From the IMG/VR virus record IMGVR_UViG_2721755726_000003: DNA of 36,569 bases; one strand, given 5' to 3'. The position numbers and the translations under genes are program-made. Positions 268 to 36,569 of this stretch are shown piece by piece; position 1 is the first letter of the stretch, and each line of letters starts with the position of its first letter. Below the pieces are notes generated by a model. It was given only the letters and a program-made list of their open reading frames with translations. It was not told where the DNA came from and searched no databases. This stretch comes from a virus. Its lineage: Duplodnaviria; Heunggongvirae; Uroviricota; Caudoviricetes.

Positions 268-288
268 AAGCCCTCGCGTTGAGGGCTT
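268..288. terminator. bidirectional hairpin between convergent grxA and ybjM
   Basis: 8-bp GC-rich stem aagccctc/gagggctt with 5-nt loop, T-run downstream on plus strand; overlaps ybjM stop codon. Confidence 0.5.
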
Positions 289-665
289 TACTGATTTTTT
301 CTGTGCTGTGGTTTAAACAAACTACTGATAAATAAGAAACACAGTGCCCCCAGCGCACACCAGAACACCGCGCTTAGTAACCATGCCAGCTCTTGCCAGA
401 ATGAGCGCGTCGGTGAAAAAAACAGCCGCATAATGAGCATCGAACAGGGTGCCGCCAGCATTGCGCCAAACAGAGGTTTCAGGACTTCTCTACGCTGTGA
501 AAAGAAGCTGGCGACTGCTCCAGGAAGAATGAAAAATAGCAAGCCGATTTCAGGATGCCCGGCAGCCCGAAAAGCGCCTTTCATGTGCGTCGCCAGAAAA
601 AGGCACACCACAATGAAGAGGACAAAACAGCAGATTGCCCCCGCCCAACGTTGTTTATGTTTCAC
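288..665 (-). CDS. ybjM: inner membrane protein YbjM
   Basis: 125-aa hydrophobic multi-TM ORF; position between grxA and ybjL matches the E. coli locus. Confidence 0.8.
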   Translation of the reverse strand: MKHKQRWAGAICCFVLFIVVCLFLATHMKGAFRAAGHPEIGLLFFILPGAVASFFSQRREVLKPLFGAMLAAPCSMLIMRLFFSPTRSFWQELAWLLSAVFWCALGALCFLFISSLFKPQHRKNQ

Positions 666-934: not shown

Positions 935-2620
935 GTGAATATAAACGTCGCCGAATTGTTAAATGGGAATTACATTCTGTTATTATTTGTGGTCCTCGCG
1001 CTTGGGCTATGTCTCGGAAAGTTACGACTTGGTTCGATCCAACTGGGTAATTCCATTGGCGTTTTAGTCGTATCGCTGTTATTAGGCCAACAACATTTCA
1101 GCATTAACACCGATGCGCTTAATCTTGGCTTTATGCTGTTTATTTTCTGCGTCGGGGTCGAAGCCGGACCGAACTTTTTTTCCATTTTTTTTCGCGATGG
1201 GAAAAATTACCTAATGTTAGCACTGGTGATGGTTGGCAGTGCGCTGGTGATCGCCTTAGGGTTAGGTAAGCTGTTTGGCTGGGATATTGGCCTGACGGCC
1301 GGTATGTTAGCAGGCTCTATGACGTCGACACCGGTTCTGGTCGGTGCTGGCGATACACTGCGTCATTCCGGCATGGAAAGCAGGCAGCTCTCACTGGCAC
1401 TGGATAATCTGAGCCTCGGGTATGCCTTAACCTATTTAATCGGTCTGGTGAGTTTGATTGTTGGTGCGCGTTACTTGCCGAAATTGCAGCATCAGGACTT
1501 ACAGACCAGCGCCCAGCAAATCGCCCGCGAACGTGGCCTGGACACTGATGCCAACCGTAAGGTTTATTTACCGGTGATCCGCGCCTATCGCGTCGGCCCG
1601 GAGCTGGTGGCCTGGACCGACGGCAAAAATCTGCGTGAACTGGGTATTTATCGACAAACCGGCTGCTACATTGAACGTATTCGACGTAACGGGATTCTGG
1701 CAAATCCAGACGGTGATGCCGTGCTACAAATGGGCGATGAAATAGCGTTGGTAGGCTATCCCGACGCCCATGCCCGACTCGATCCCAGCTTCCGTAACGG
1801 TAAAGAAGTTTTCGATCGTGACCTTCTCGACATGCGTATCGTCACTGAAGAAGTGGTCGTTAAAAACCATAACGCTGTAGGTAAACGTCTCGCACAACTG
1901 AAGTTGACCGATCACGGTTGCTTCCTTAACCGCGTCATTCGTAGCCAGATTGAGATGCCGATAGATGACAACGTCGTGCTTAACAAAGGTGACGTTTTAC
2001 AAGTCAGCGGTGATGCCCGTCGCGTAAAAACCATCGCCGATCGCATCGGCTTTATCTCGATTCACAGCCAGGTCACTGACCTGCTGGCATTTTGCGCCTT
2101 CTTTGTTATTGGGCTGATGATCGGGATGATCACCTTCCAGTTCAGCACATTCAGTTTCGGCATGGGGAACGCTGCCGGGTTGTTATTCGCCGGAATTATG
2201 CTGGGCTTTATGCGTGCTAACCACCCGACCTTCGGTTACATTCCGCAAGGTGCATTAAGCATGGTGAAAGAGTTCGGCTTGATGGTGTTTATGGCAGGCG
2301 TTGGTCTGAGCGCCGGTAGCGGTATTAATAACGGCCTGGGCGCGATTGGCGGTCAGATGTTGATTGCCGGATTAATTGTCAGTCTTGTGCCCGTGGTTAT
2401 CTGTTTCTTGTTCGGTGCTTATGTATTGCGAATGAACCGCGCACTGTTGTTCGGCGCAATGATGGGCGCACGCACCTGCGCGCCGGCAATGGAGATCATC
2501 AGTGATACAGCTCGCAGTAACATCCCTGCGCTGGGCTACGCGGGCACCTACGCAATCGCCAACGTCCTGCTGACGCTGGCAGGGACAATCATCGTCATGG
2601 TATGGCCAGGATTAGGATAA
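935..2620 (+). CDS. ybjL: putative AAE-family transporter YbjL
   Basis: 561-aa ORF with GTG start, duplicated membrane domains flanking soluble TrkA-C-like region; recognised as YbjL. Confidence 0.9.
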
Positions 2621-2732
2621 AACTGAAGTTGCCCTGAAAATGAAATTTTTTTGCACAACCGCAGAACTTTTCCGCAGGGCATCAGTCTTAATTAGTGCCA
2701 CTGCTTTTCTTTGATGTCCCCATTTTGTGGAG

Positions 2733-2776
2733 CCCATCAACCCCGCCATTTCGGTTCAAGGTTGATGGGTTTTTTG
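2733..2776 (+). terminator. putative rho-independent terminator downstream of ybjL
   Basis: 10-bp stem cccatcaacc/ggttgatggg followed by TTTTTTG; loop is long (17 nt), so modest confidence. Confidence 0.4.
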
Positions 2777-2855
2777 TTGCCTGAAATTTAAGCTGTTTAA
2801 AATCATGATGTTAGAAACACTGTTTTTTAACGATGGCGACAAAATGGCGGCAGCG

Positions 2856-3074
2856 TCAAAGAGAGAGCGCCACCTGTCCTGATTTCATTGGATGCGGCTG
2901 AACCGGATTTGACTCTTTTGGCGTTGCAATCGAACGAACAAAAGTTTCATGGGTAACAAAAGTATGGCTGCAGTTAATGTTCTGGCACTGGTTGTAACGC
3001 TCTTTGGTCAATGAAGATACCTGAAAACTGCTGCGAGTATGGGCGGCACTTCCACACAGTGGGCAAATCATCAT
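2856..3074 (-). CDS. ogr: Ogr/Delta-family zinc-finger late transcription activator
   Basis: C-x2-C ... C-x4-C motif (ICPLCG...QCQNINCSHTF) typical of P2 Ogr; start taken at internal Met giving 72 aa instead of track start 3107. Confidence 0.85.
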   Translation of the reverse strand: MMICPLCGSAAHTRSSFQVSSLTKERYNQCQNINCSHTFVTHETFVRSIATPKESNPVQPHPMKSGQVALSL

Positions 3075-3164
3075 TTTTCGAGCTCTCCCCATTTTTGCTA
3101 AATTCACAATAATGATACCGCATTATTCCATTTTGCAAACTTAAAAGTTCTCCATTGCGAAGAA

Positions 3165-4265
3165 TCATTCCATTTCGAAATCATCAATCCTCACTTCAAG
3201 CTCCAGACTGGTCGTAAAACCATTATCCGGGCTGACAGTATGTGTCAGAGTCGTAATGGTCCATTCCGCATCATCTATCGGCTGTTTAAAACCACTGACC
3301 TTCACAGGCATTTCCGTGTAGAGATCTGCCCGCCCTTCTGCCAGTTGTAGCGAAAATGACGCAACGCCGCGTTGCAGGCGTTCCCACTGCATTTTCGCCG
3401 CTCGTTCGGCGTTGCTCCGGTTGGCATAAGTGCGATTAAGTACCAGCACGTTTTCATCCGTACCCACCAGGTAATCGCCCTGCTTCGCTTCCGGCTCTTT
3501 CTTCTGCTTCTTAGTTCTGCGCTTACGCTTCACCGTGGTGCTTTCTTTCTTCGCGGGTTCGCGGGTATGCAACCAGCTGGCAATTACGCCCGTGTAGGCT
3601 CCGCGATCTGCCAGGGTAAATCGGTGACTGTCGCCGTCCTTGCGTGTGATAGTGATCACTGGCAGAGGTTTACCAGTGGCGCTTTTGCCCTGCCCCTGCC
3701 GGATGAATAACAGATTGCCATTTTTCACCGACGCGATGGCACCGTACTGTCGCGCCAGCCGCATCAGAAAACTGCCGTCACTCTCATTAGTCTGGTCTAT
3801 ATGCTCCACGGGCTTATCCGACAGGTCTTTACCCAGTGCCATCTTCAGCTTGTGCCGCGCGGCTATTTCCTTCACCACTTCCCCGACGGTGGTCTTATGC
3901 CACGATTTTTCACGGCGGGTATTCAGCGTTTCCCGAAAATCAGCACTTCGCGCCCGGATAGTCAGGCGGTCCGGTGCGCCAGTGTGTTCAATCTCGTCCA
4001 CTGTGAATGCCCCTTTCGGGAAAAGCGGCTGCCCCTTCCAGCCCAGCGCCAGCGTAATAACCGCACCACGGCGCGGCAGCACGATTTTTCCGTCAGCGTC
4101 ATCCAGCTCCAGATCAAGCTGGTCCGCTTCAAAGCCCCGGTTATCCGTCAGCGTCAAACTCATCAGGCGGTTATCCAGCACAGTGGTGATATCCCTGCCC
4201 TCAATACTGATGCTGAATGCGGGAGTTTTGTTGCCTTTGTTAAGCAGTTCAGAGCTGAAATTCAC
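3165..4265 (-). CDS. D: tail protein D
   Basis: 366-aa ORF, P2 gpD-like, synteny between ogr and U; GTG start in track. Confidence 0.8.
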   Translation of the reverse strand: MNFSSELLNKGNKTPAFSISIEGRDITTVLDNRLMSLTLTDNRGFEADQLDLELDDADGKIVLPRRGAVITLALGWKGQPLFPKGAFTVDEIEHTGAPDRLTIRARSADFRETLNTRREKSWHKTTVGEVVKEIAARHKLKMALGKDLSDKPVEHIDQTNESDGSFLMRLARQYGAIASVKNGNLLFIRQGQGKSATGKPLPVITITRKDGDSHRFTLADRGAYTGVIASWLHTREPAKKESTTVKRKRRTKKQKKEPEAKQGDYLVGTDENVLVLNRTYANRSNAERAAKMQWERLQRGVASFSLQLAEGRADLYTEMPVKVSGFKQPIDDAEWTITTLTHTVSPDNGFTTSLELEVRIDDFEME

Positions 4266-10778: not shown

Positions 10779-10804
10779 TTGGTTTGGGAGAAGCGGCAAA
10801 ACGG
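10779..10804. repeat. left inverted repeat and crossover site of invertible tail-fibre segment
   Basis: 26 bp ttggtttgggagaagcggcaaaacgg, perfect reverse complement of 12286..12311; nearby aaacgttggttt resembles gix/hix-type core. Confidence 0.8.
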
Positions 10805-11152
10805 GACGTGGGAACAGGGGAAAATCAGATACCGGATATGGTTTCATTTAGTGGTGTGAGGGATTTTTATGGAAAACAACTTTTGCCAGGAGGGTTGATA
10901 CTCCAGTGGCTGACGATTCCATCAAGTGCAGCAGTCAAAGCTGTAACACTGGATAATGGTAATTATCAGCTGTCAGGCTATAAATGGCCCCAGTCATTTG
11001 GTGTCCTGTTTGCTGTGTTTGCCACAAAAGTTTCTGGCTCGACTAACGAAGCATACGCAATCTCAGTTAATCGTCACTCTACCGATGTAATTGTCACCTG
11101 GAATGCCCGTAAGGCTGATGATGTCCATATTTTAGGAATTGGGAAATTATGA
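10779..11152 (+). CDS. alternative tail fibre C-terminal exon (silent orientation)
   Basis: Plus-strand frame encodes [20 protein letters not shown]..., matching the H crossover motif; no own start needed, would fuse to H after inversion. Confidence 0.7.
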
Positions 11153-11568
11153 AAATGAAATGGTCCCCATCTGTTCAGGGATTTTTCTCTGAAAACAACA
11201 GCGATATTCCCGATGATGCTTTCGATATTGAAGATGCTCTTTATTATGAACTTATGAATGGTCAGAGTACGGGGAAAATTATTATCAATAGCCCGGATAA
11301 CTACCCTGTACTTACTGAATATCCAGCGAAGACACATGAACAGGAAATAGCTGAAGCGGAGGGAATGAAAAATATACTTATTGAACAGGCCAACGATTAT
11401 ATGAACAGTAAACAATGGCCTGGTAAAGCGGCTATTGGCCGGCTGAAAGGTGAGGAACTGGCACAATATAATTTGTGGCTGGATTACCTGGACGCACTGG
11501 AACTGGTCGATACTTCCGGTGCGCCAGATATTGAATGGCCTACACCTCCGGTAACTCAGGCCAGCTAA
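11149..11568 (+). CDS. tail fibre assembly chaperone (alternative set)
   Basis: 139-aa ORF, ATGA overlap with alternative fibre end, C-terminal ...[11 protein letters not shown] motif shared with the minus-strand chaperone. Confidence 0.75.
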
Positions 11569-11935
11569 TCTCAGGAGCCGTCGAAGTGTCGACGGCTTTT
11601 ACTTCTTTTTTGTAGTCTATCCAGGCAGATAGTTTTTCTTTATCTGTACTGCTGATATCACCAAGCATTAATTCCACCCGCCAGTCAGCTGTGACATTAT
11701 CGGCATGAGCAAGTAACTGCATTCGCTGATTTTCAGCACGTGCGACATAATCAATCGCCGGAGATTTCAGTACCGGTAAACCATTTTCATCTGACGTGAT
11801 TAATTTCCCCCCTTCCTGCTGTCCGGCAATTAATTCATTGTATAAGTCTGTACTTATCTCAACAATGTCAGCAGGCATGTCGCTGTTTATACCATCAAAG
11901 AAAAAACCATTAGTCGATTTTGAGAAATAAATCAT
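11540..11935 (-). CDS. G: tail fibre assembly chaperone (expressed orientation)
   Basis: P2 gpG-like ORF directly after H stop; start taken at internal Met (MIYFSK...) rather than track start 11965. Confidence 0.75.
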   Translation of the reverse strand: MIYFSKSTNGFFFDGINSDMPADIVEISTDLYNELIAGQQEGGKLITSDENGLPVLKSPAIDYVARAENQRMQLLAHADNVTADWRVELMLGDISSTDKEKLSAWIDYKKEVKAVDTSTAPEISWPELPEV

Positions 11936-11943
11936 AGATATAC

Positions 11944-13359
11944 CTATACACCGATTGCTACCCAAAAACAGGACCTTTCATATTTGACAATTTCTCCCTG
12001 AGATATACCGCCAACAATTATATAGAACTGTGATTTGCTGATATCAGAACAGTTCGCTATGCCCATTGCAGATATACCAGCCACCGACGTTGTATGTGGC
12101 ACAGCCAACAGCGCAAGTGAACGATTTGGGAATGTTACCGGGTAAGTCACCGTATAGTTTGATGCTCCACTGACAATACCCCACTGAATAATCAGACCTG
12201 AAGGGAGTTTTTGAAAACCCGTTGATGAAAGTGAACTGGCAAACGCCGCCATATCCGGAATTTGGTTTTGCTCATTACCTACATTCCGTTTTGCCGCTTC
12301 TCCCAAACCAAGGTATGTGAGAAGACCAGCTACATCCTTTCCACTCAAATTGGTAAGCGTATTGTCCAGCGGTTGTTTACCTGCCAGCGCATTAAGCATT
12401 GTCGTGGCAAAGTTCGGATCATTCCCCAGTGCCGCCGCCAGTTCGTTCAGTGTATCCAGTGCAGCAGGTGCAGAACCCACCATTCCTGCAATCGCCGATT
12501 TCACAAAAGCCGTAGTGGCAATCTGTGTATTGTTGACCGACTGCGCCGCCGTGGGGGCTGTTGGCGTTCCGGTGAGTGCCGGACTCGACAACGGTGCTTT
12601 TAGTGCCAGCGCATTGTTAATGGTGGTACTGAAATTCGGATCATTGTTAATGGCTGCGGCTATTTCTTTCAGCGTGTCCAGCGTGGCTGGCGCACCATTA
12701 ATAAGGGCCGTCAGTGCCGCCTGTACAAACGCAGTGGTCGCAACCTGCGTGGTATTATTCCCCGCCGCTGGCGTTGGCGCTTTGGGGGTTCCGGTAAATG
12801 TCGGGCTGGCTTTTGGCGCGTACTGTGAATGCGGGTCCGGTGCGGCAAGATGTTTTGCCATCTGATCATCCGCGTACACCTTCAGCTCCAGTGCCTTGTC
12901 ATCCACATACTTGCGGGTTGCCAGCACTACAGCAGGGTCGATTTTCAGGGTGATATTGTCCGTGCTGCTGGTAATCAGCACCATGCGCACGGTCTGAGTG
13001 CGCCCGCTACCTTCAGCCAGTTGCGGCTTATAGCTTTCCGGGCAGTTGCCCACGGCAATCAATGCCCCGGACTCATCAAACAAGCCCACTTCACGTATCC
13101 ACCAACCGCCCTCGTTTTCAGGGATCACCTGTTCGGCAATAATCTGGCTGCTGTTCTGCGGGTCGATATAAAGCATATTCAGCGCAGCCCGGCGTTTCTC
13201 ATTTACCAGTGCCGTCTGCTTTGCGTCCGGCGTTGGCAATACTCCACCGCCATCGCCCACCGCCATATGGGTAATTTTTAGCGGCACACCGAGCGCGGCG
13301 GCGCTGGCAAGTTTCGCCGCGCCAATATCCGTCAGCAGGGTATAAAATTTTGTGCTCAT
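11944..13359 (-). CDS. H: tail fibre protein H
   Basis: 471-aa ORF with conserved P2 gpH N-terminus, tandem about 70-aa repeats, variable C-terminus inside invertible segment. Confidence 0.85.
   Translation of the reverse strand: MSTKFYTLLTDIGAAKLASAAALGVPLKITHMAVGDGGGVLPTPDAKQTALVNEKRRAALNMLYIDPQNSSQIIAEQVIPENEGGWWIREVGLFDESGALIAVGNCPESYKPQLAEGSGRTQTVRMVLITSSTDNITLKIDPAVVLATRKYVDDKALELKVYADDQMAKHLAAPDPHSQYAPKASPTFTGTPKAPTPAAGNNTTQVATTAFVQAALTALINGAPATLDTLKEIAAAINNDPNFSTTINNALALKAPLSSPALTGTPTAPTAAQSVNNTQIATTAFVKSAIAGMVGSAPAALDTLNELAAALGNDPNFATTMLNALAGKQPLDNTLTNLSGKDVAGLLTYLGLGEAAKRNVGNEQNQIPDMAAFASSLSSTGFQKLPSGLIIQWGIVSGASNYTVTYPVTFPNRSLALLAVPHTTSVAGISAMGIANCSDISKSQFYIIVGGISQGEIVKYERSCFWVAIGV
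12286..12311. repeat. right inverted repeat and crossover site of invertible tail-fibre segment
   Basis: Perfect 26-bp inverted copy of 10779..10804; lies inside H coding sequence at the LGLGEAAKR motif. Confidence 0.8.
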
Positions 13360-23568: not shown

Positions 23569-24602
23569 TGGGAAAGAGTAAGAAGAACCGCGCTGCGGCG
23601 ACGAAACAGATCCAGCTTAAAAGTCAAACTACAGCCGAAGCATTCAGCTTCGGCGATCCCGTTCCTGTTCTGGACCGCCGAGAACTGCTGGATTATGTGG
23701 AATGCGTACAGATGGACCGCTGGTATGAGCCGCCCGTCAGCTTTGACGGACTGGCGCGCACCTTCCGCGCTGCCGTTCATCATAGTTCCCCGATTGCAGT
23801 AAAGTGCAACATTCTGACCAGCACCTACATCCCTCACCCGCTGCTCAGCCAGCAGGCTTTTTCGCGTTTTGTGCAGGACTATCTGGTATTTGGTAACGCC
23901 TACCTGGAGAAACGCACGAACCGCTTCGGTGAAGTTATCTCCCTTGAACCTGCCTTGGCAAAATACACCCGACGCGGGTTAGACCTGGATACCTACTGGT
24001 TTGTGCAATACGGTATGACCACGCAGCCATATCAGTTCACGAAAGGCAGCATCTTTCATCTGATGGAACCGGACATCAACCAGGAGATCTACGGCCTGCC
24101 CGGTTATCTTTCTGCTATTCCATCCGCCCTGCTCAACGAGTCTGCCACGCTGTTCCGCCGCAAGTATTACATTAACGGCAGTCATGCAGGCTTCATCATG
24201 TATATGACCGACGCCGCGCAGAACCAGGAAGATGTGAACAACCTCCGCAACGCGATGAAAAGCGCCAAAGGCCCTGGCAACTTCCGCAACCTGTTTATGT
24301 ACTCGCCTAACGGCAAAAAGGACGGGCTTCAGATCATCCCGTTGTCAGAAGTCGCAGCGAAAGATGAATTTCTGAACATCAAGAACGTGAGCCGGGACGA
24401 CATGATGGCTGCACACCGCGTACCGCCTCAGATGATGGGAATTTTGCCGAATAATGTTGGGGGGTTTGGGGATGTGGAGAAGGCAAGTCGGGTATTTGTT
24501 CGTAATGAATTAATACCTTTGCAAAAACGTTTCGAAGAATTAAATTTATGGCTAAAAAATAATATTATTACATTCAAAGAATATCAACTATCCCTAGACT
24601 AA
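23565..24602 (+). CDS. Q: portal protein Q
   Basis: 345-aa ORF, P2 gpQ-like, ATGA overlap with P. Confidence 0.9.
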   Translation: MMGKSKKNRAAATKQIQLKSQTTAEAFSFGDPVPVLDRRELLDYVECVQMDRWYEPPVSFDGLARTFRAAVHHSSPIAVKCNILTSTYIPHPLLSQQAFSRFVQDYLVFGNAYLEKRTNRFGEVISLEPALAKYTRRGLDLDTYWFVQYGMTTQPYQFTKGSIFHLMEPDINQEIYGLPGYLSAIPSALLNESATLFRRKYYINGSHAGFIMYMTDAAQNQEDVNNLRNAMKSAKGPGNFRNLFMYSPNGKKDGLQIIPLSEVAAKDEFLNIKNVSRDDMMAAHRVPPQMMGILPNNVGGFGDVEKASRVFVRNELIPLQKRFEELNLWLKNNIITFKEYQLSLD

Positions 24603-24607
24603 TTAAT

Positions 24608-24628
24608 AACCACCTCTATGAGGTGGTT
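24608..24628. terminator. hairpin between convergent Q and 469-aa gene
   Basis: Perfect 9-bp stem aaccacctc/gaggtggtt with 3-nt loop, AT-rich flanks. Confidence 0.45.
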
Positions 24629-24649
24629 AACAAGAATAAACCTAATTAA

Positions 24650-26059
24650 TTACTCATCTACTCTGATTTTTTGTTTTTTATTATTTTGAGTTAAGACATT
24701 TATGGTAATAGATGTATACGGATGAAAGTCAGGCACTATACTTTTAACCTCTCCATTTTCAAGAAAATGATGTGCTATTGAAGGAAATAAATCAGGATCT
24801 ACAGGATATTTAGCATTAGGATTATGATACATATTTAAACCTTCTGCCCATGTTTCTGTAATATCGCCTTCTTTCACTTCAAAACTAAATGCTGCTGGAT
24901 ATAATGCCTCTGGGTCATGATCATGGCAGTAACCACTCCTAAATAATCTAAGGTCACTTCTTCCAAAACCAGCCAGTTTTCCCATCCGATTAAACTTCGA
25001 TATAGTACCACTATTAGAACTAAGGACGGCCGAAATATTTTCAGACTCATCCAAGAAGAAAAAGCCTGAAGGAATTTCCTTTTTCTCAAATTGATGCGAT
25101 ATAATTTTCTTAGTTGCTAAACTGTAACATCCATCTTCAGATTTAACATGCTCATAGCGAATACCATAAAGATACTGCCAAAGTGCACTATGGGACCAAA
25201 TCATAGAGTTTGGTTCATGAAAATCAGCAATTGCGAAAATTAAAGGATTCCCCTTAACATGTTCTAGATCCCAGTATCGAGTTTTCTTTTTCAGTTTAGA
25301 ATAGAGAGAACTTCCAAATTTAATCGGCATATAATTCTCTATTTTCTCTAGCAATTCTTCCTTACTTTTAGGTTCAGATAGCATTTCAGATGATTGATTA
25401 ATATCATTCCCTGTTGGATTAACCGTTACAGCTTCAATGCAAATAGTATTACCATACTTACGTGCCACATAATCAGGGGCATTAAACTGCCTATCTAGCC
25501 AAAAGTGTTCCTCTCGTAAATATGCGAAAAGATATAACTCCCATAGCCGGGCATCAAAACCTGTTGTCTGAAACTGCTCTATAAAATTCCCGTCGACATC
25601 CTCAAAATGATTCATCATTTCCTTGATTATCCCTGTTGCAGGCGACCAGTTCGCGTATTTACCAAATAATGAAAAATGATGATGAAGTTTATCTGGTGTA
25701 ACTATAGGTGTGAATAAATCCATTGCTTTATAAGTTTCATCACCTTGTGGAAATACTTTTACGTTTAATTTAGTATGCTTCCGCATTAATTTCTTTAGTT
25801 TTGCTCGTGCAGAATTCATTTCTGAAACACTAGTAAATAGGTCAATACATCTATATCTCCCACTTAAGTCTCTTGCTAAAACAATACCGCTATAATCTTC
25901 ATCGATTTGATCCAATAATAGTGCCCCTAGCAGGAACTCTCTCGGACTACAGTACCACTCAAACTCATAGCCTAAAAGTTCAGTATTTGGCATTCTGGTC
26001 CAATCAACAAAAGCATTAAACCTCTCTTTACTCATTTTTTTTATATCAAGAAAAGACAT
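24650..26059 (-). CDS. hypothetical 469-aa protein, AT-rich accessory gene (candidate defence/exclusion cargo)
   Basis: Long uninterrupted ORF, ATG start with GAGGT SD, visibly AT-rich against GC-rich phage core; no family recognised by eye. Confidence 0.75.
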   Translation of the reverse strand: MSFLDIKKMSKERFNAFVDWTRMPNTELLGYEFEWYCSPREFLLGALLLDQIDEDYSGIVLARDLSGRYRCIDLFTSVSEMNSARAKLKKLMRKHTKLNVKVFPQGDETYKAMDLFTPIVTPDKLHHHFSLFGKYANWSPATGIIKEMMNHFEDVDGNFIEQFQTTGFDARLWELYLFAYLREEHFWLDRQFNAPDYVARKYGNTICIEAVTVNPTGNDINQSSEMLSEPKSKEELLEKIENYMPIKFGSSLYSKLKKKTRYWDLEHVKGNPLIFAIADFHEPNSMIWSHSALWQYLYGIRYEHVKSEDGCYSLATKKIISHQFEKKEIPSGFFFLDESENISAVLSSNSGTISKFNRMGKLAGFGRSDLRLFRSGYCHDHDPEALYPAAFSFEVKEGDITETWAEGLNMYHNPNAKYPVDPDLFPSIAHHFLENGEVKSIVPDFHPYTSITINVLTQNNKKQKIRVDE

Positions 26060-26157
26060 CTTTCTACCTCATCACGAAAAAATATTTTTTCCTAAAAAGA
26101 CTTAAGTTAGCTTAATCTATCGATAAAAAAAAGCTAAGTAACGACCAAATACGCGCG

Positions 26158-26176
26158 CTCGTATCCCCGCCACGCC
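26158..26176 (-). other. putative cos (cohesive end) site
   Basis: Minus-strand GGCGTGGCGGGGATACGAG resembles the P2/186 19-nt cohesive end (GGCG-A/T-GGCGGGGA...), oriented toward Q. Confidence 0.4.
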
Positions 26177-26197
26177 TGCCCGCTTTATGCAGTGGTT

Positions 26198-26303
26198 TTC
26201 ATGCACATGCATGACATGAGCAAAAGCCCGCCAGTTCTGGCGGATCTGAGCAAAGACGATCCTCAATCGATCATGCGATTTCATGCAGCATAGTCATGCA
26301 CTG
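26198..26303. repeat. cluster of short CATGCA/CATGCG/CATGAC motifs and a 16-bp palindrome next to putative cos
   Basis: At least six CATGxx hexamers in about 100 bp plus palindrome ccgccagttctggcgg at 26228..26243; possible terminase or regulator binding sites. Confidence 0.3.
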
Positions 26304-26555
26304 TCAAGGAAGTGAAAATCCGTATCTGAATGGCCACTTGAAAAACGGATCATACGGGTTTACAAAGATGAATGTTCGCTGTGAACGGGAAGCGGAAGTT
26401 AACTTTCAGATAACATAATCCATATGCACGAGAACCTCTAAAATAGAATGGGACACCTAAGCGGGGTACTTACAACGATTCTTTCCATATTCACAGTTAA
26501 CACTCTGTTTGGCGTATTTTTATTCAAATAGCAAACACCAATAAAAGGAGTTTCC

Positions 26556-26891
26556 ATGAACAATATTCCCCCTATACCACAGTTAGGAATTTATGTCTCA
26601 AAAATCGATCCCACCCTACGTATCACTGTAACCGATGTTGATATTGTTGATGGTGAGGATGATTCTCCTGATGATGAATTGTTTTATTTAGTCCACTGGA
26701 TCGAGGGGGAAGATGAAAGTGATATGACAGCAATGGGATTTGAGCTAGACCCATTAGAGTGGCAGGCTTTCGTTGAATCTGAGCAATTAGTGTTTGAGCG
26801 TGATCCGTACATGGATTCAATCCCCGAAAATTCAAACTTGGCAAAGATTCGGGATTTTCTCATGAAGACTAAACAGAATGATCATTCGTAA
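26556..26891 (+). CDS. hypothetical small acidic protein (111 aa)
   Basis: ATG with AAGGAG SD; about 26 Asp/Glu against about 7 basic residues by hand count; AT-rich. Confidence 0.65.
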   Translation: MNNIPPIPQLGIYVSKIDPTLRITVTDVDIVDGEDDSPDDELFYLVHWIEGEDESDMTAMGFELDPLEWQAFVESEQLVFERDPYMDSIPENSNLAKIRDFLMKTKQNDHS

Positions 26892-27083
26892 GTGTAAGCA
26901 TCCATCAGGAAAATGGTTTTGTAAGTGAATCATCAACTTTTAGAGAGTCTCAGACACTCCCACTTCTGCTTCTGACACAAAGCGGACGATCACTTATCAA
27001 AATAACCGCCCACCTTACGCCTTATTTCACTCATTGCCCAAACTAGCCCCCATCAGAATGAATCCTCCTGGGGGCAACATTTC

Positions 27084-32738: not shown

Positions 32739-32826
32739 GATGCAACATCTCCTATTGGCTTGTGGTGAGCCGGTATTAATCGTGACGAAAACTTCACAAA
32801 ACGGAGAATAGGTTCGCATAAAGAAT
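32739..32826. promoter_or_regulatory. lysis-lysogeny switch region between apl and cI
   Basis: Only 88 bp separate divergent start codons of apl and cI, so promoters and operators must overlap here. Confidence 0.4.
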
Positions 32827-33768
32827 ATGTCAACTAATAAAATCACATTTCGCCATATTGAAGATCATCTGAAAGCCATGGTCATGCAGAATCGAGGAGG
32901 GCAAAAAGTCATTGAGAGAATACTCATGGCCTATGGTTTCAAATCACGCCAAGCATTCTGTAACCACCTTGGTATTTCACAAAGTACAATGGCTAACAGA
33001 TATGCACGCGATACCTTCCCTGCTGATTGGGTTGTTATATGTTCAATGGAAACTGGCGCATCAATCGAATGGTTAGCATTTGGTTTAGATGCTGAAGAAG
33101 GAGTGCCAGTTCCTTCGCCAGAACGGCATGCTGAAAAACAGTCTGCAGATGAATTTTGCAATGAAGTTCACACCCCCACGATAAAGTTCGATAATGAAAA
33201 CCACATGGATTTCACTCGAGGGGGTAAAGCAGCAATAGAGCGAATTGTTAAGGCTTACGGTTACAAAACGCGCCAAGCCTTAGCCGATCACCTTGGTATC
33301 TCAAAAAGCACATTAGCTACACGATACATGCGAGACATTTTTCCGGCAGACTGGATCATCCAATGCTGTTTAGAAACAGGAGTGTCTCTCGAGTGGTTAT
33401 CTTTTGGTAAGGGGCATTCCAATCAAACAAAGCTAAGTGGGTTGCTTACATTAGACTGCTATGATCTACGTGACGGCAAACTTACTGATCAAAGAGAATT
33501 AATCGTTTCGAGCGAAATTTTACCTCAAAATTTAAAACATCCCTATATAGTTAATTCCGCAAATGATTCATATATCATTAGCAAAGAGGAGTATCTTAGC
33601 GATGGTCTATGGTTAGTATCTATTAACGGAGAATTTACTTTTAGAGACATATTTAAACTTCCAAACAATCGCATCCGCGTTGAAAACACAAAATATAGCT
33701 TTGAATGCGATAAAGAAGATTTGGAATTTAATAATAAAGTTAAAGGAATAATTAGAAAAAGGGTTTAA
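32827..33768 (+). CDS. cI: CI immunity repressor with tandemly duplicated N-terminal DNA-binding domain
   Basis: Two about 67-aa repeats (residues 22-88 and 130-196) each resembling the 186 CI N-terminal domain, then a C-terminal domain. Confidence 0.7.
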   Translation: MSTNKITFRHIEDHLKAMVMQNRGGQKVIERILMAYGFKSRQAFCNHLGISQSTMANRYARDTFPADWVVICSMETGASIEWLAFGLDAEEGVPVPSPERHAEKQSADEFCNEVHTPTIKFDNENHMDFTRGGKAAIERIVKAYGYKTRQALADHLGISKSTLATRYMRDIFPADWIIQCCLETGVSLEWLSFGKGHSNQTKLSGLLTLDCYDLRDGKLTDQRELIVSSEILPQNLKHPYIVNSANDSYIISKEEYLSDGLWLVSINGEFTFRDIFKLPNNRIRVENTKYSFECDKEDLEFNNKVKGIIRKRV

Positions 33769-33770
33769 CA

Positions 33771-34820
33771 ATGAGCTTTACGAAAACTATTGAATTTGCA
33801 AACTATACCTTAAATTTTGGAGAGGACAAAGTTCTCTTAGATGCTTTTGATTGCATTGTTTTTCCTTCATTTTTCGCACAAAAATACGTTAGAAAATTTA
33901 AAGATACAGAATATTTCTTTACTGACACAAAAATTATTACGTTAGATACTACAGATTCAGATTTTATTGGTCCTATAGTTCCAACAATTGCATTGTGTGG
34001 CCGCATTATAAAAAAGACCATATTTAAACGAGATCAAATATTTCAAGATGGTCAATTAATTCGAGATCACAGGACGCTAGAAAGTCACCCCAGCTCTATT
34101 TTTATTCTTATGCTTAATGAGCACAGATTAATGCTTTGCAAAGAGGTTTCTGGAGCCCCTACCCTAGAAGAATTTGAAAATACTAGCAAGTATTGCCTTG
34201 CACAGCGATATAATTCTTTTGTGGATTACGAAGTAAAAAAAAATAAAAGAATTAGAAAGAAAAAATCATACATTGATCGACTGTATAAAAAAGATATTTA
34301 TCGTAAACTAGGAGCCCCCAAATTACGGGTTACCCCCTTAACAGACCCAAGATCATTGAGCAATTTTGTTGAACTCTTTTCTGTTGTTAATAGATTATCA
34401 ATTGAGTTATTGCCAACAAATAGTGAAAATATATCTCTTGATGGCTTCTGGAGGAAAATTGAACAAGAAAAAGAAGAACTTAATAGTAGTAAAGCTCAAT
34501 TAGTATACACAAATAAAAATGAAGATGGTTTAAATTCTGAGGCCGTCATTCAAAAAACAACAAGTGCAACCCGAATGGCCAACTCTAAAGTAATTATCAG
34601 TGGTAAAGATGAACACGGAGCAAGGCTATCAGGGAATAATGATAGTTTTACTCTAAAAGCATCAAGGCCACAACTTAGTTCTGATTTGGAAAGAGCTGCT
34701 CAAGAGGCGTATTCTGCATTCACAGAATTAAAGGATGAAGGAAATATTATTATTCCAGAACGTGAAGATTATACTAAAATTTTTTCCAAGTTAACATCAA
34801 TAATTTCTAGGTGGCTATAG
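33771..34820 (+). CDS. hypothetical 349-aa soluble protein, component A of cI-linked accessory cassette
   Basis: ATG 2 nt after cI stop; AT-rich; Lys-rich central segment; no recognised motif. Confidence 0.7.
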   Translation: MSFTKTIEFANYTLNFGEDKVLLDAFDCIVFPSFFAQKYVRKFKDTEYFFTDTKIITLDTTDSDFIGPIVPTIALCGRIIKKTIFKRDQIFQDGQLIRDHRTLESHPSSIFILMLNEHRLMLCKEVSGAPTLEEFENTSKYCLAQRYNSFVDYEVKKNKRIRKKKSYIDRLYKKDIYRKLGAPKLRVTPLTDPRSLSNFVELFSVVNRLSIELLPTNSENISLDGFWRKIEQEKEELNSSKAQLVYTNKNEDGLNSEAVIQKTTSATRMANSKVIISGKDEHGARLSGNNDSFTLKASRPQLSSDLERAAQEAYSAFTELKDEGNIIIPEREDYTKIFSKLTSIISRWL

Positions 34821-34821
34821 T

Positions 34822-35427
34822 ATGAAATATACATTCAACCCAGAAGATCTGACCAAAGAGCGATCTTTGCATGATGTTTACAAATTAACTAAAAAAATAA
34901 AGGTCAATTCATTTGACTTTTATTTCACATTATTGTTAGTGATATTATTATCTATTAATGCTTTTTGTCTATCTTCATCACCAGAGTTAATTTCATCTAT
35001 TAGACAATGGACACCTTTAGTATTCGGATTCACTACAACAACATTAGGTTTTTTAATTACTGGATTTACAATATTTGCAACCATAAATAAACCTGAACTT
35101 TTCCTTTCATTAATGGAGTATAAGCATCCATTATACGGGATAAGTTACTTAAAATATGTTTATGGTGTATTTATGAGAGTATTTATATATTTCATATTTT
35201 GGTCTGTTATCTATCTTTTAGTCCTTCTTTTCGGGCAAGAAAATGGATTGGCTACAAAATTACTCAGAGCCTTAATGTTTTCTCATTGCACTAAAGTTGT
35301 TGGAGTTCAAATACTATATATACTCGTAGGAAGCAGTGCAGTGTTCCTTGTATTAACTTTAAAAACTTTCCTGTTCAATATTTATGCTATGTTAATGCAA
35401 TCTCTACGCTGGGAAGTAGAAAGATAA
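34822..35427 (+). CDS. hypothetical 201-aa membrane protein with four predicted TM helices, component B of cI-linked accessory cassette
   Basis: ATG 1 nt after upstream stop with AGGTGG SD; four hydrophobic stretches of about 20 residues; AT-rich. Confidence 0.7.
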   Translation: MKYTFNPEDLTKERSLHDVYKLTKKIKVNSFDFYFTLLLVILLSINAFCLSSSPELISSIRQWTPLVFGFTTTTLGFLITGFTIFATINKPELFLSLMEYKHPLYGISYLKYVYGVFMRVFIYFIFWSVIYLLVLLFGQENGLATKLLRALMFSHCTKVVGVQILYILVGSSAVFLVLTLKTFLFNIYAMLMQSLRWEVER

Positions 35428-35436
35428 AATTAACCT

Positions 35437-35516
35437 CAATGTATGAATCTTAATTCATATACATTGACACTGGTTATACATACAGTAAAAATGCTCTCCA
35501 CTGGAGGGCATTTTTT
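35437..35516 (+). promoter_or_regulatory. int upstream region with imperfect palindrome, TTGACA hexamer and hairpin plus T-run
   Basis: Imperfect inverted repeat caatgtatgaat...attcatatacattg, perfect TTGACA at 35464..35469, stem-loop gctctccactggagggc followed by TTTTTT directly before int ATG. Confidence 0.3.
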
Positions 35517-36569
35517 ATGGCAGTACGAAAACTCACCACAGGAAAATGGCTATGCGAATGTTACCCCGCGGGACGTAGTGGACGTCGTGTGCGTAAACAA
35601 TTCGCCACCAAAGGTGAAGCTCTGGCTTTTGAGCGTCACACGATGGAAGAAACCGAAGCAAAGCCCTGGCTGGGTGAATCAGTGGATCGTCGAACACTGA
35701 AAGACGTGGTTGAGCTATGGTTCAAACTACATGGTAAATCTCTGACAGCTGGGCAGCATGTCTATGACAAATTGCTGTTGATAGTTGACGCTCTGGGCAA
35801 TCCCCTTGCAACCGATCTCACCTCTAAAATGTTTGCCCACTATCGAGATAAACGCCTGACAGGAGAGATCTACTTCAGCGAAAAATGGAAGAAAGGAGCA
35901 AGCCCGGTCACCATTAACCTGGAGCAAAGCTATCTTAGTAGTGTTTTTAGCGAACTATCCCGCCTGGGCGAATGGTCGTATCCGAACCCACTGGAGAACA
36001 TGCGAAAATTCACCATCGCAGAAAAAGAGATGGCATGGCTTACCCATGAGCAGATTGTTGAATTACTGGCTGATTGCAAACGTCAGGACCCAATTCTGGC
36101 ACTGGTAGTTAAGATATGCTTAAGCACAGGCGCACGCTGGCGAGAAGCCGTAAATCTTACTCGTTCACAGGTGACCAAATACCGAATTACCTTTGTAAGA
36201 ACGAAGGGGAAGAAAAACAGAAGCATCCCTATCAGTAAAGAGCTTTACGAAGAGATCATGGCGCTTGATGGGTTCAATTTCTTCACAGACTGCTATTTTC
36301 AATTTTTATCCGTGATGGAAAAAACGTCTATCGTGCTCCCTCGCGGTCAACTCACACACGTTCTGCGCCATACGTTTGCAGCGCACTTCATGATGTCGGG
36401 TGGAAACATCCTGGCCTTACAAAAAATTCTCGGACATCACGATATAAAAATGACGATGCGTTACGCACATCTGGCACCGGATCATCTGGAAACGGCGCTC
36501 CGTTTCAATCCTCTGGCAACGCTGCCAAGTGGCGACAAAGTGGCGGCAGCGGTTGGCATTACCCCGTAA
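35517..36569 (+). CDS. int: tyrosine integrase (P2/186 family)
   Basis: 350-aa ORF with C-terminal R...H..R...Y catalytic region (HVLRHTFA...MRYAHL); stop codon is last 3 bases of window. Confidence 0.9.
   Translation: MAVRKLTTGKWLCECYPAGRSGRRVRKQFATKGEALAFERHTMEETEAKPWLGESVDRRTLKDVVELWFKLHGKSLTAGQHVYDKLLLIVDALGNPLATDLTSKMFAHYRDKRLTGEIYFSEKWKKGASPVTINLEQSYLSSVFSELSRLGEWSYPNPLENMRKFTIAEKEMAWLTHEQIVELLADCKRQDPILALVVKICLSTGARWREAVNLTRSQVTKYRITFVRTKGKKNRSIPISKELYEEIMALDGFNFFTDCYFQFLSVMEKTSIVLPRGQLTHVLRHTFAAHFMMSGGNILALQKILGHHDIKMTMRYAHLAPDHLETALRFNPLATLPSGDKVAAAVGITP

Follow-up and report, generated by a model that had tools for sequence, protein, structure and literature searches.

The window considered here, meaning the whole stretch of DNA analysed (36,569 nucleotides; IMG/VR record IMGVR_UViG_2721755726_000003, Caudoviricetes), opens with host genes and continues into phage genes. 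The host genes are grxA (1–258), ybjM (288–665, minus strand) and ybjL (935–2620). The phage genes begin with a P2-type ogr, beyond which come gene D and then the tail genes, and the integrase gene (int) lies at the far end, where the last base of the window (36569) is also the last base of the integrase stop codon. This layout, with ybjL ending at 2620, ogr as the start of the phage and the integrase stop at the window end, was already given correctly by the first-pass annotation. The genes and signals that frame the junction are as follows.

935–2620, plus strand: ybjL, aspartate:alanine antiporter, the last host protein-coding gene (open reading frame; RefSeq annotation of matching genomes)
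2664–2690, plus strand: putative sigma-E promoter of rybB (−35 GAACTT at 2664–2669, 16-nt spacer, −10 TCTTA at 2686–2690)
2697–2778, plus strand: rybB small RNA gene, intact (Rfam RF00110; identity to the K-12-type gene)
2731–2777, plus strand: RybB Rho-independent terminator, hairpin 2731–2771 and U-tract 2772–2777 (fold; Rfam structure line)
2856–3074, minus strand: ogr, late-gene activator of 72 aa, the first phage gene (Pfam Ogr_Delta, 5e-22; RefSeq annotation)
35517–36569, plus strand: tyrosine integrase (Pfam Int_N, PF24624, 5e-32; Phage_integrase, PF00589, 7e-22)

The 235 bp between ybjL and ogr are not empty and contain a complete rybB small RNA (sRNA) gene. In an Rfam scan, RF00110 (RybB) matched 2700–2778 over the full model (1–79 of 79) with 105.3 bits against a gathering score of 40 (E = 1.8e-22), and it was the only Rfam match within 2400–3300. 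We take the 5′ end of the gene to be 2697 (GCCACUGC), where GCC precedes the start of the Rfam model. From there to 2778 the gene is 100% identical to the K-12-type gene, and the 158 positions from 2621 to 2778 hold no mismatch. The elements listed upstream, as read from the letters, suggest a sigma-E promoter; that rybB depends on sigma-E is well established (see PMC3632133). The terminator hairpin folds at −25.2 kcal/mol (z = −3.3) and is followed by a run of U. A simple terminator scan of 2550–3150 returned no match; it missed this hairpin because the internal branch exceeds the loop limit of the scan.

In empty sites, the order ybjL – rybB – rcdA (ybjK) is conserved, with rcdA on the strand opposite to rybB; in lysogens, rcdA follows attR. 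Given the RF00110 gene at 2697–2778, it is rybB rather than ybjL that ends the host side. The earlier statement that host genes stop at ybjL was mistaken on this point, as rybB comes after ybjL and is the integration target, and the interval is better labelled as rybB plus attL than as an empty junction.

The junction and the attachment core

The region 2300–3300 of the window was compared by megablast with 5,426 complete E. coli genomes, 5,418 of which matched. In 1,114 of the 5,426 genomes the alignment extends across ogr and D; elsewhere it ends at 2778 or 2790, which is where homology to prophage-free E. coli genomes ends. The junction thus falls before ogr and within 2621–2855, as the first-pass annotation had placed it, and the comparison with empty sites that it proposed shows no host sequence continuing past ogr. 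Phage DNA begins at 2779 or 2791, depending on which end of the homology is used, and this is the prophage boundary. The core is described by two segments.

2765–2778: minimal att core, ATGGGTTTTTTGTT, common to attL, attR, attP and all attB alleles
2779–2790: extended core, GCCTGAAATTTA, phage-derived here; identical to attB allele A (O157, B2), with 3–4 mismatches to alleles B and C (K-12)

The minimal core takes in the U-tract and, ahead of it, the five to seven bases that end the 3′ arm of the stem in the RybB terminator, and identity with allele A hosts spans 26 bp (2765–2790). The joints compare as follows, with slashes marking the segment limits.

attL (window): ...ggttcaaggttg / ATGGGTTTTTTGTT / GCCTGAAATTTA / agctgttt...
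attB allele A (O157, B2): host left flank as in attL / ATGGGTTTTTTGTT / GCCTGAAATTTA / tctactacc...
attB allele B: host left flank as in attL / ATGGGTTTTTTGTT / ATCTAAAATTTA / tctactacc...
attB allele C (K-12 type): host left flank as in attL / ATGGGTTTTTTGTT / ATCTAAAACTTA / tctactacc...
attR: ...cccgtttacataa / ATGGGTTTTTTGTT / host allele (12 bp) / tctactacc...
attP of Klebsiella phage KP12 (int and ogr contiguous): ...cccgtttacataa / ATGGGTTTTTTGTT / GTCTGAAATTTA / tgccgttt...

It is important to note that the attR sequence was taken from relatives, not from the window itself. The best matches, ECE218 and ECE228, are 100% identical to the window only over its final 3.8 kb (32800–36569); outside this stretch ECE218 is mosaic. 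In ECE218 and ECCRA-119, whose int ends are 99.6–100% identical to that of the window, the int stop codon is followed by 74 bp of phage DNA, ATGGGTTTTTTGTT, host DNA and rcdA. The second core copy in these relatives therefore starts 75 bp past the int stop, that is, beyond the window end. With attR as the query, matches to empty sites begin no earlier than the first core base.

These results bear on two further earlier claims. The second att copy was said to lie outside the window, and ATGGGTTTTTTGTT indeed occurs only once in it; the direct repeat predicted for the far end is the core copy found in the relatives. The core repeat was also said to be undefinable, which holds for the window alone; data from outside it define the core as 2765–2778, extending to 2790.

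All three host alleles (A, B and C) were seen at the attR of lysogens. In allele B and C hosts, positions 15–26 carry the phage version in attL and the host version in attR, which would place both strand exchanges within the 14 bp; the crossover probably falls inside 2765–2778. In E. coli 1070/13 (L012, 88–101) the core reads ATGGTTTTTTTGTT, a G-to-T change that alters the att core and takes a G-C pair out of the stem of the RybB terminator.

Arm sites and a model of integration at rybB

Outside the core, the attP of the phage can be assembled from the two ends of the prophage. Its candidate integrase-binding elements are listed below.

2791–2855: phage P′ arm of attP, from the core to the ogr stop (contiguous in KP12; absent from empty sites)
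2834–2855, plus strand: candidate P′ arm-type integrase sites, tandem TGGCGACA-AA-TGGCGGCA with an 11-bp period (22-mer repeat; 186-type consensus)
36530–36551, plus strand: candidate P arm-type integrase sites, TGGCGACAAAGTGGCGGCAGCG, inside the 3′ coding end of int (22-mer repeat)

The 22-bp element, TGGCGACAAA(A/G)TGGCGGCAGCG, is made up of two units in tandem with a period of 11 bp, and occurs in exactly two copies in the window, against 0.00 expected by chance. The copy at 2834–2855 touches the ogr stop codon, and the copy at 36530–36551 lies about 93–114 bp before the core in the reconstructed attP. Reverse-complemented, the AAGTGGCGGCA of the arm pairs corresponds to the arm consensus of the 186 type, tgccGCCActt (PMC3448106), and direct repeats of this type form one tandem pair on each side of the core. 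Their position and consensus suggest that the repeats serve as binding sites for the integrase.

The integrase, whose 3′ end faces the attR outside the window, carries GKWLCECY near its N-terminus, giving W11, E14 and Y16. In the scheme of PMC3448106, Int residues at alignment positions 16/19/21 discriminate the 186 type (W/E/Y) from the P2 type (Y/D/R); the residues here have the same 3+2 spacing and match the 186 type, with a 5-residue offset from the published positions that is deduced from the spacing. The switch genes are annotated as CI, CII and Fil in a near-identical strain, which corresponds to a 186-type switch. The CI repressor (32827–33768, 313 aa) has two Phage_CI_repr helix-turn-helix domains and one Phage_CI_C domain, and its DNA-binding domain is internally duplicated.

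Other binding sites were also sought. The strict IHF consensus WATCAANNNNTTR and its relaxed forms had no match in the reconstructed attP, while YAANNNNTTG-like repeats, ACTTATTGTTTT, occur twice in the P arm beyond the window and resemble IHF half-sites. A search for Apl-type operators, as 7-mers common to attP and the cI-apl switch region, gave scattered matches and no periodic set.

We consider, with a probability of roughly 0.93, that 2621–2855 contains rybB followed by the attL of a prophage of the P2 family, whose integrase and switch are of the 186 type and which is integrated at the 3′ end of rybB. The model draws on observed junction positions, an intact rybB, the repeats and the distribution of the prophage across genomes, and the argument for integration and excision at this site is comparative, built on occupied and empty sites in 5,426 genomes. 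The attP would lie between the convergent 3′ ends of int and ogr; int, attP and ogr are contiguous in phage KP12, and in the window the two halves occupy opposite ends of the prophage. The attP core repeats the sequence in which the RybB terminator ends, namely ATGGG from the 3′ arm of the stem with TTTTTTGTT behind it, and as many as 12 more bases that resemble the host. Acting on arm sites flanking the core, the integrase would carry out strand exchange within 2765–2778, with the cleavage points estimated from the alignments. After integration, rybB retains its complete terminator at attL; the gene is unchanged by integration because attP carries a copy of the terminator-end segment.

At attR, the phage-supplied CCCGTTTACATAA would pair with ATGGG and be followed by the U-run, forming a terminator-like hairpin for int. 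A CCCGTTTACATAA/ATGGG hairpin of −9 kcal/mol does stand directly after int in both attP and attR, and in variants of it a G·U pair is replaced by A-U; this hairpin is probably the int terminator. Past 36569, the model predicts, in order, TAACCACCACTGACC..., CCCGTTTACATAA, ATGGGTTTTTTGTT, the 12 bp of one of the alleles (A, B or C), TCTACTACC and finally rcdA.

Site occupancy, attB alleles and alternative readings

The attB site is uninterrupted in 4,227 of the 5,426 complete E. coli genomes, and attR (phage arm, core and rcdA) is present in 1,122 (about 21%), a count that agrees with the 1,114 genomes having attL, ogr and D. The rybB terminator is thus among the most heavily used prophage sites of E. 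coli, with a prophage in roughly every fifth complete genome. In one scan of species-representative genomes, the junction of phage arm and core was found in 16 species, labelled as Escherichia, Klebsiella, Raoultella, Kluyvera, Citrobacter, Enterobacter, Leclercia, Silvania and Scandinavium, together with two labels at the level of Enterobacteriaceae only; the int–core–rcdA junction occurs in at least nine enterobacterial genera besides that of E. coli. At most of the 16 loci an integrase 85–99% identical lies upstream, and at 12 of them an rcdA homologue lies downstream.

Some GenBank "phage" records that include host flanks are excised prophage regions (ON470620 = L013; KY271398 = L007/L008). 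For example, the vB_EcoM-813R9 record carries rcdA, ybjJ and ybjI, and the 4LV2017 record carries the rybB of K. pneumoniae.

Three attB alleles follow the 14-bp core, GCCTGAAATTTA, ATCTAAAATTTA and ATCTAAAACTTA, which differ by 3–4 substitutions in 12 bp in a region that is otherwise about 98–100% conserved (loci L001, L002, L009–L011, L014–L019). The phage has the GCCTGAAATTTA version, which also occurs in other E. coli lineages and is partly matched in most of the other genera sampled. The host side begins with GCCTG in 14 of the 16 species loci; therefore the ATCTA alleles of E. coli look derived, and the GCCTGAAATTTA allele looks ancestral. It was also considered that the phage-like 12 bp of empty sites might be the footprint of an earlier lysogeny, which was rejected as the default since the host side in most of the other genera sampled likewise begins with GCCTG.

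The alleles raise the question of core length. It is possible, if somewhat less probable than a 14-bp core, that the functional core is the whole 26 bp (2765–2790) and that alleles B and C are tolerated, less efficient secondary sites, comparable to P2 locH versus locI. The identity of attP, attL and attB allele A over 26 bp points in this direction, as do the host side in most other genera, which also starts with GCCTG(AAAT), and the 4LV2017 record, which annotates an att of 19–20 bp. However, strand exchange must still fall to the left of position 15, and allele B or C occurs in about 9 of 13 lysogen rows versus about 27 of 47 empty rows, so that lysogens are no rarer in allele B or C hosts than in allele A hosts. 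These rows form a small sample, uncorrected for phylogeny and spread over the summary tables. In this same small, phylogeny-uncorrected sample, the post-core substitutions are accompanied by no visible drop in lysogeny.

A second alternative is that the prophage is a decayed remnant with a non-functional att site, which we regard as unlikely. Prophages at the rybB site are mosaic, and some relatives carry IS5, as decay might produce; but int, ogr and the arm sites are intact here, the core is perfect, a near-identical attP occurs in phage records, and the closely related ECE218 prophage is annotated with a full P2-type set of structural, lysis and replication genes.

A more speculative idea, to which we give little credence, concerns the clustered substitutions that many E. 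coli carry behind the core (ATCTAAAA[C/T]TTA versus GCCTGAAATTTA): rather than neutral drift, they might be a response of the host to a very common phage. The other half of this idea is that phage DNA, by taking the place of the sequence directly behind the U-tract, might alter the termination or 3′ end of RybB and, with it, the sigma-E envelope-stress response in lysogens.

The weakest reading, that this is a new or unusual P2-like integration site, is very improbable: it differs from P2 locI, from the cyaR site and from the tRNA site of 186, and no tRNA lies in the window, but about 21% of complete E. coli genomes are occupied here and the site has been published both as the rybB ncRNA (in E. 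coli W, B and Crooks) and as the PhiECO1 site. The first-pass annotation was right that no classical P2 (locI, cyaR/locH) or 186 (tRNA-Ile) junction is present, the flanks being ybjL and rcdA, with no tRNA anywhere in the window; its hint of an unusual site did not hold.

The site was described in two papers of 2011 and is ordinary, neither rare nor new. In the genome paper of E. coli W (PMC3032704), three P2-type prophages, Rybb*W, Rybb*B (with retron Ec86) and Rybb*Cr, are listed as inserted at the "rybB ncRNA", and cyaR is another sRNA site of P2-type phages. Nilsson et al. 2011 (PMC3448106) described PhiECO1 of E. coli HS at 916812–948276 and assigned its integration site, together with a 186-type CI, to PhiECO2, PhiECO3 and PhiSEN1, so that prophages of the PhiECO1 site are known from HS, ATCC 8739, CFT073 and Typhi. 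In Table 1 of that paper, PhiSEN1 (S. Typhi CT18) lies at 3515381–3549053, yet it is given the site identity of PhiECO1. In a gap-free alignment (hit H3), HS position 948276 corresponds to window position 2778, the last base of the 14-bp core. The value of the present finding is mainly for annotation, with a boundary at 2779 (or 2791) and a core at 2765–2778 (or to 2790).

Variable regions and comparison with known systems

Several other regions of the prophage vary among relatives. Between cI and int (33771–35427) there are two open reading frames of 349 aa and 201 aa, the latter rich in hydrophobic segments, with a GC content of 0.29–0.33 against 0.42–0.51 around them. Neither had a match in Pfam or PADLOC, although a homologue is labelled DUF4747 in RefSeq. 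The same slot holds an AAA ATPase with IS5, an ATP-dependent nuclease or a "chromosome segregation ATPase" in relatives, or retron Ec86 according to the literature, which gives it the look of a hotspot for variable cargo or defence genes. Beside the portal gene, another variable region (24545–27074) has no alignment with the ECE218 prophage and contains open reading frames of 469 aa (24650–26059, minus strand) and 111 aa, neither with a Pfam match. The tail-fibre/invertase region (10794–12296) likewise has no alignment with the ECE218 prophage, where a recombinase-family gene is annotated at the counterpart position; this fits a switchable or mosaic tail-fibre module.

The closest known systems are prophages of the PhiECO1 type, namely PhiECO1 (HS), PhiECO2 = Rybb*Cr (ATCC 8739), PhiECO3 (CFT073), Rybb*W and Rybb*B, which occupy the same site between ybjL/rybB and rcdA. 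Their ogr and D end is 98–99% identical to that of the window, and they share the 186-type cI/apl/cII switch and integrase. They are mosaic elsewhere, and their cI–int cargo differs: two unannotated open reading frames of low GC here, and a retron, AAA ATPase or nuclease in other strains.

The Klebsiella phages 4LV2017 (Elveevirus) and KP12 are 96–97% identical over the core, the P′ arm, ogr and D. In 4LV2017, the same 14-bp core adjoins the rybB of K. pneumoniae, and the depositors annotated an att of 19–20 bp. These phages differ in their host genus, and the host flank diverges after GCCTG.

More distant parallels are the cyaR phages (Wphi2, P2*B and the ogr-D′ remnant of K-12) and Fels-2/SopEPhi (ssrA), which are also of the P2 family and whose attB likewise lies at the 3′ end of an RNA gene, small or structured. 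According to the literature, they differ in using another RNA gene and another core, and the cyaR phages have a P2-type integrase in place of a 186-type one.

Coliphage 186 likewise has 186-type Int residues and arm consensus, an attP by the 3′ end of int and a switch of the CI/Apl/CII/Fil type, and its target is also the 3′ end of a structured RNA gene that is rebuilt by the core. Unlike in 186, the target here is the terminator of an sRNA, with a core of 14–26 bp. The locus illustrates a general rule, by which phages of the P2/186 family have the 3′ end of a structured RNA gene as their target and restore that gene on integration.
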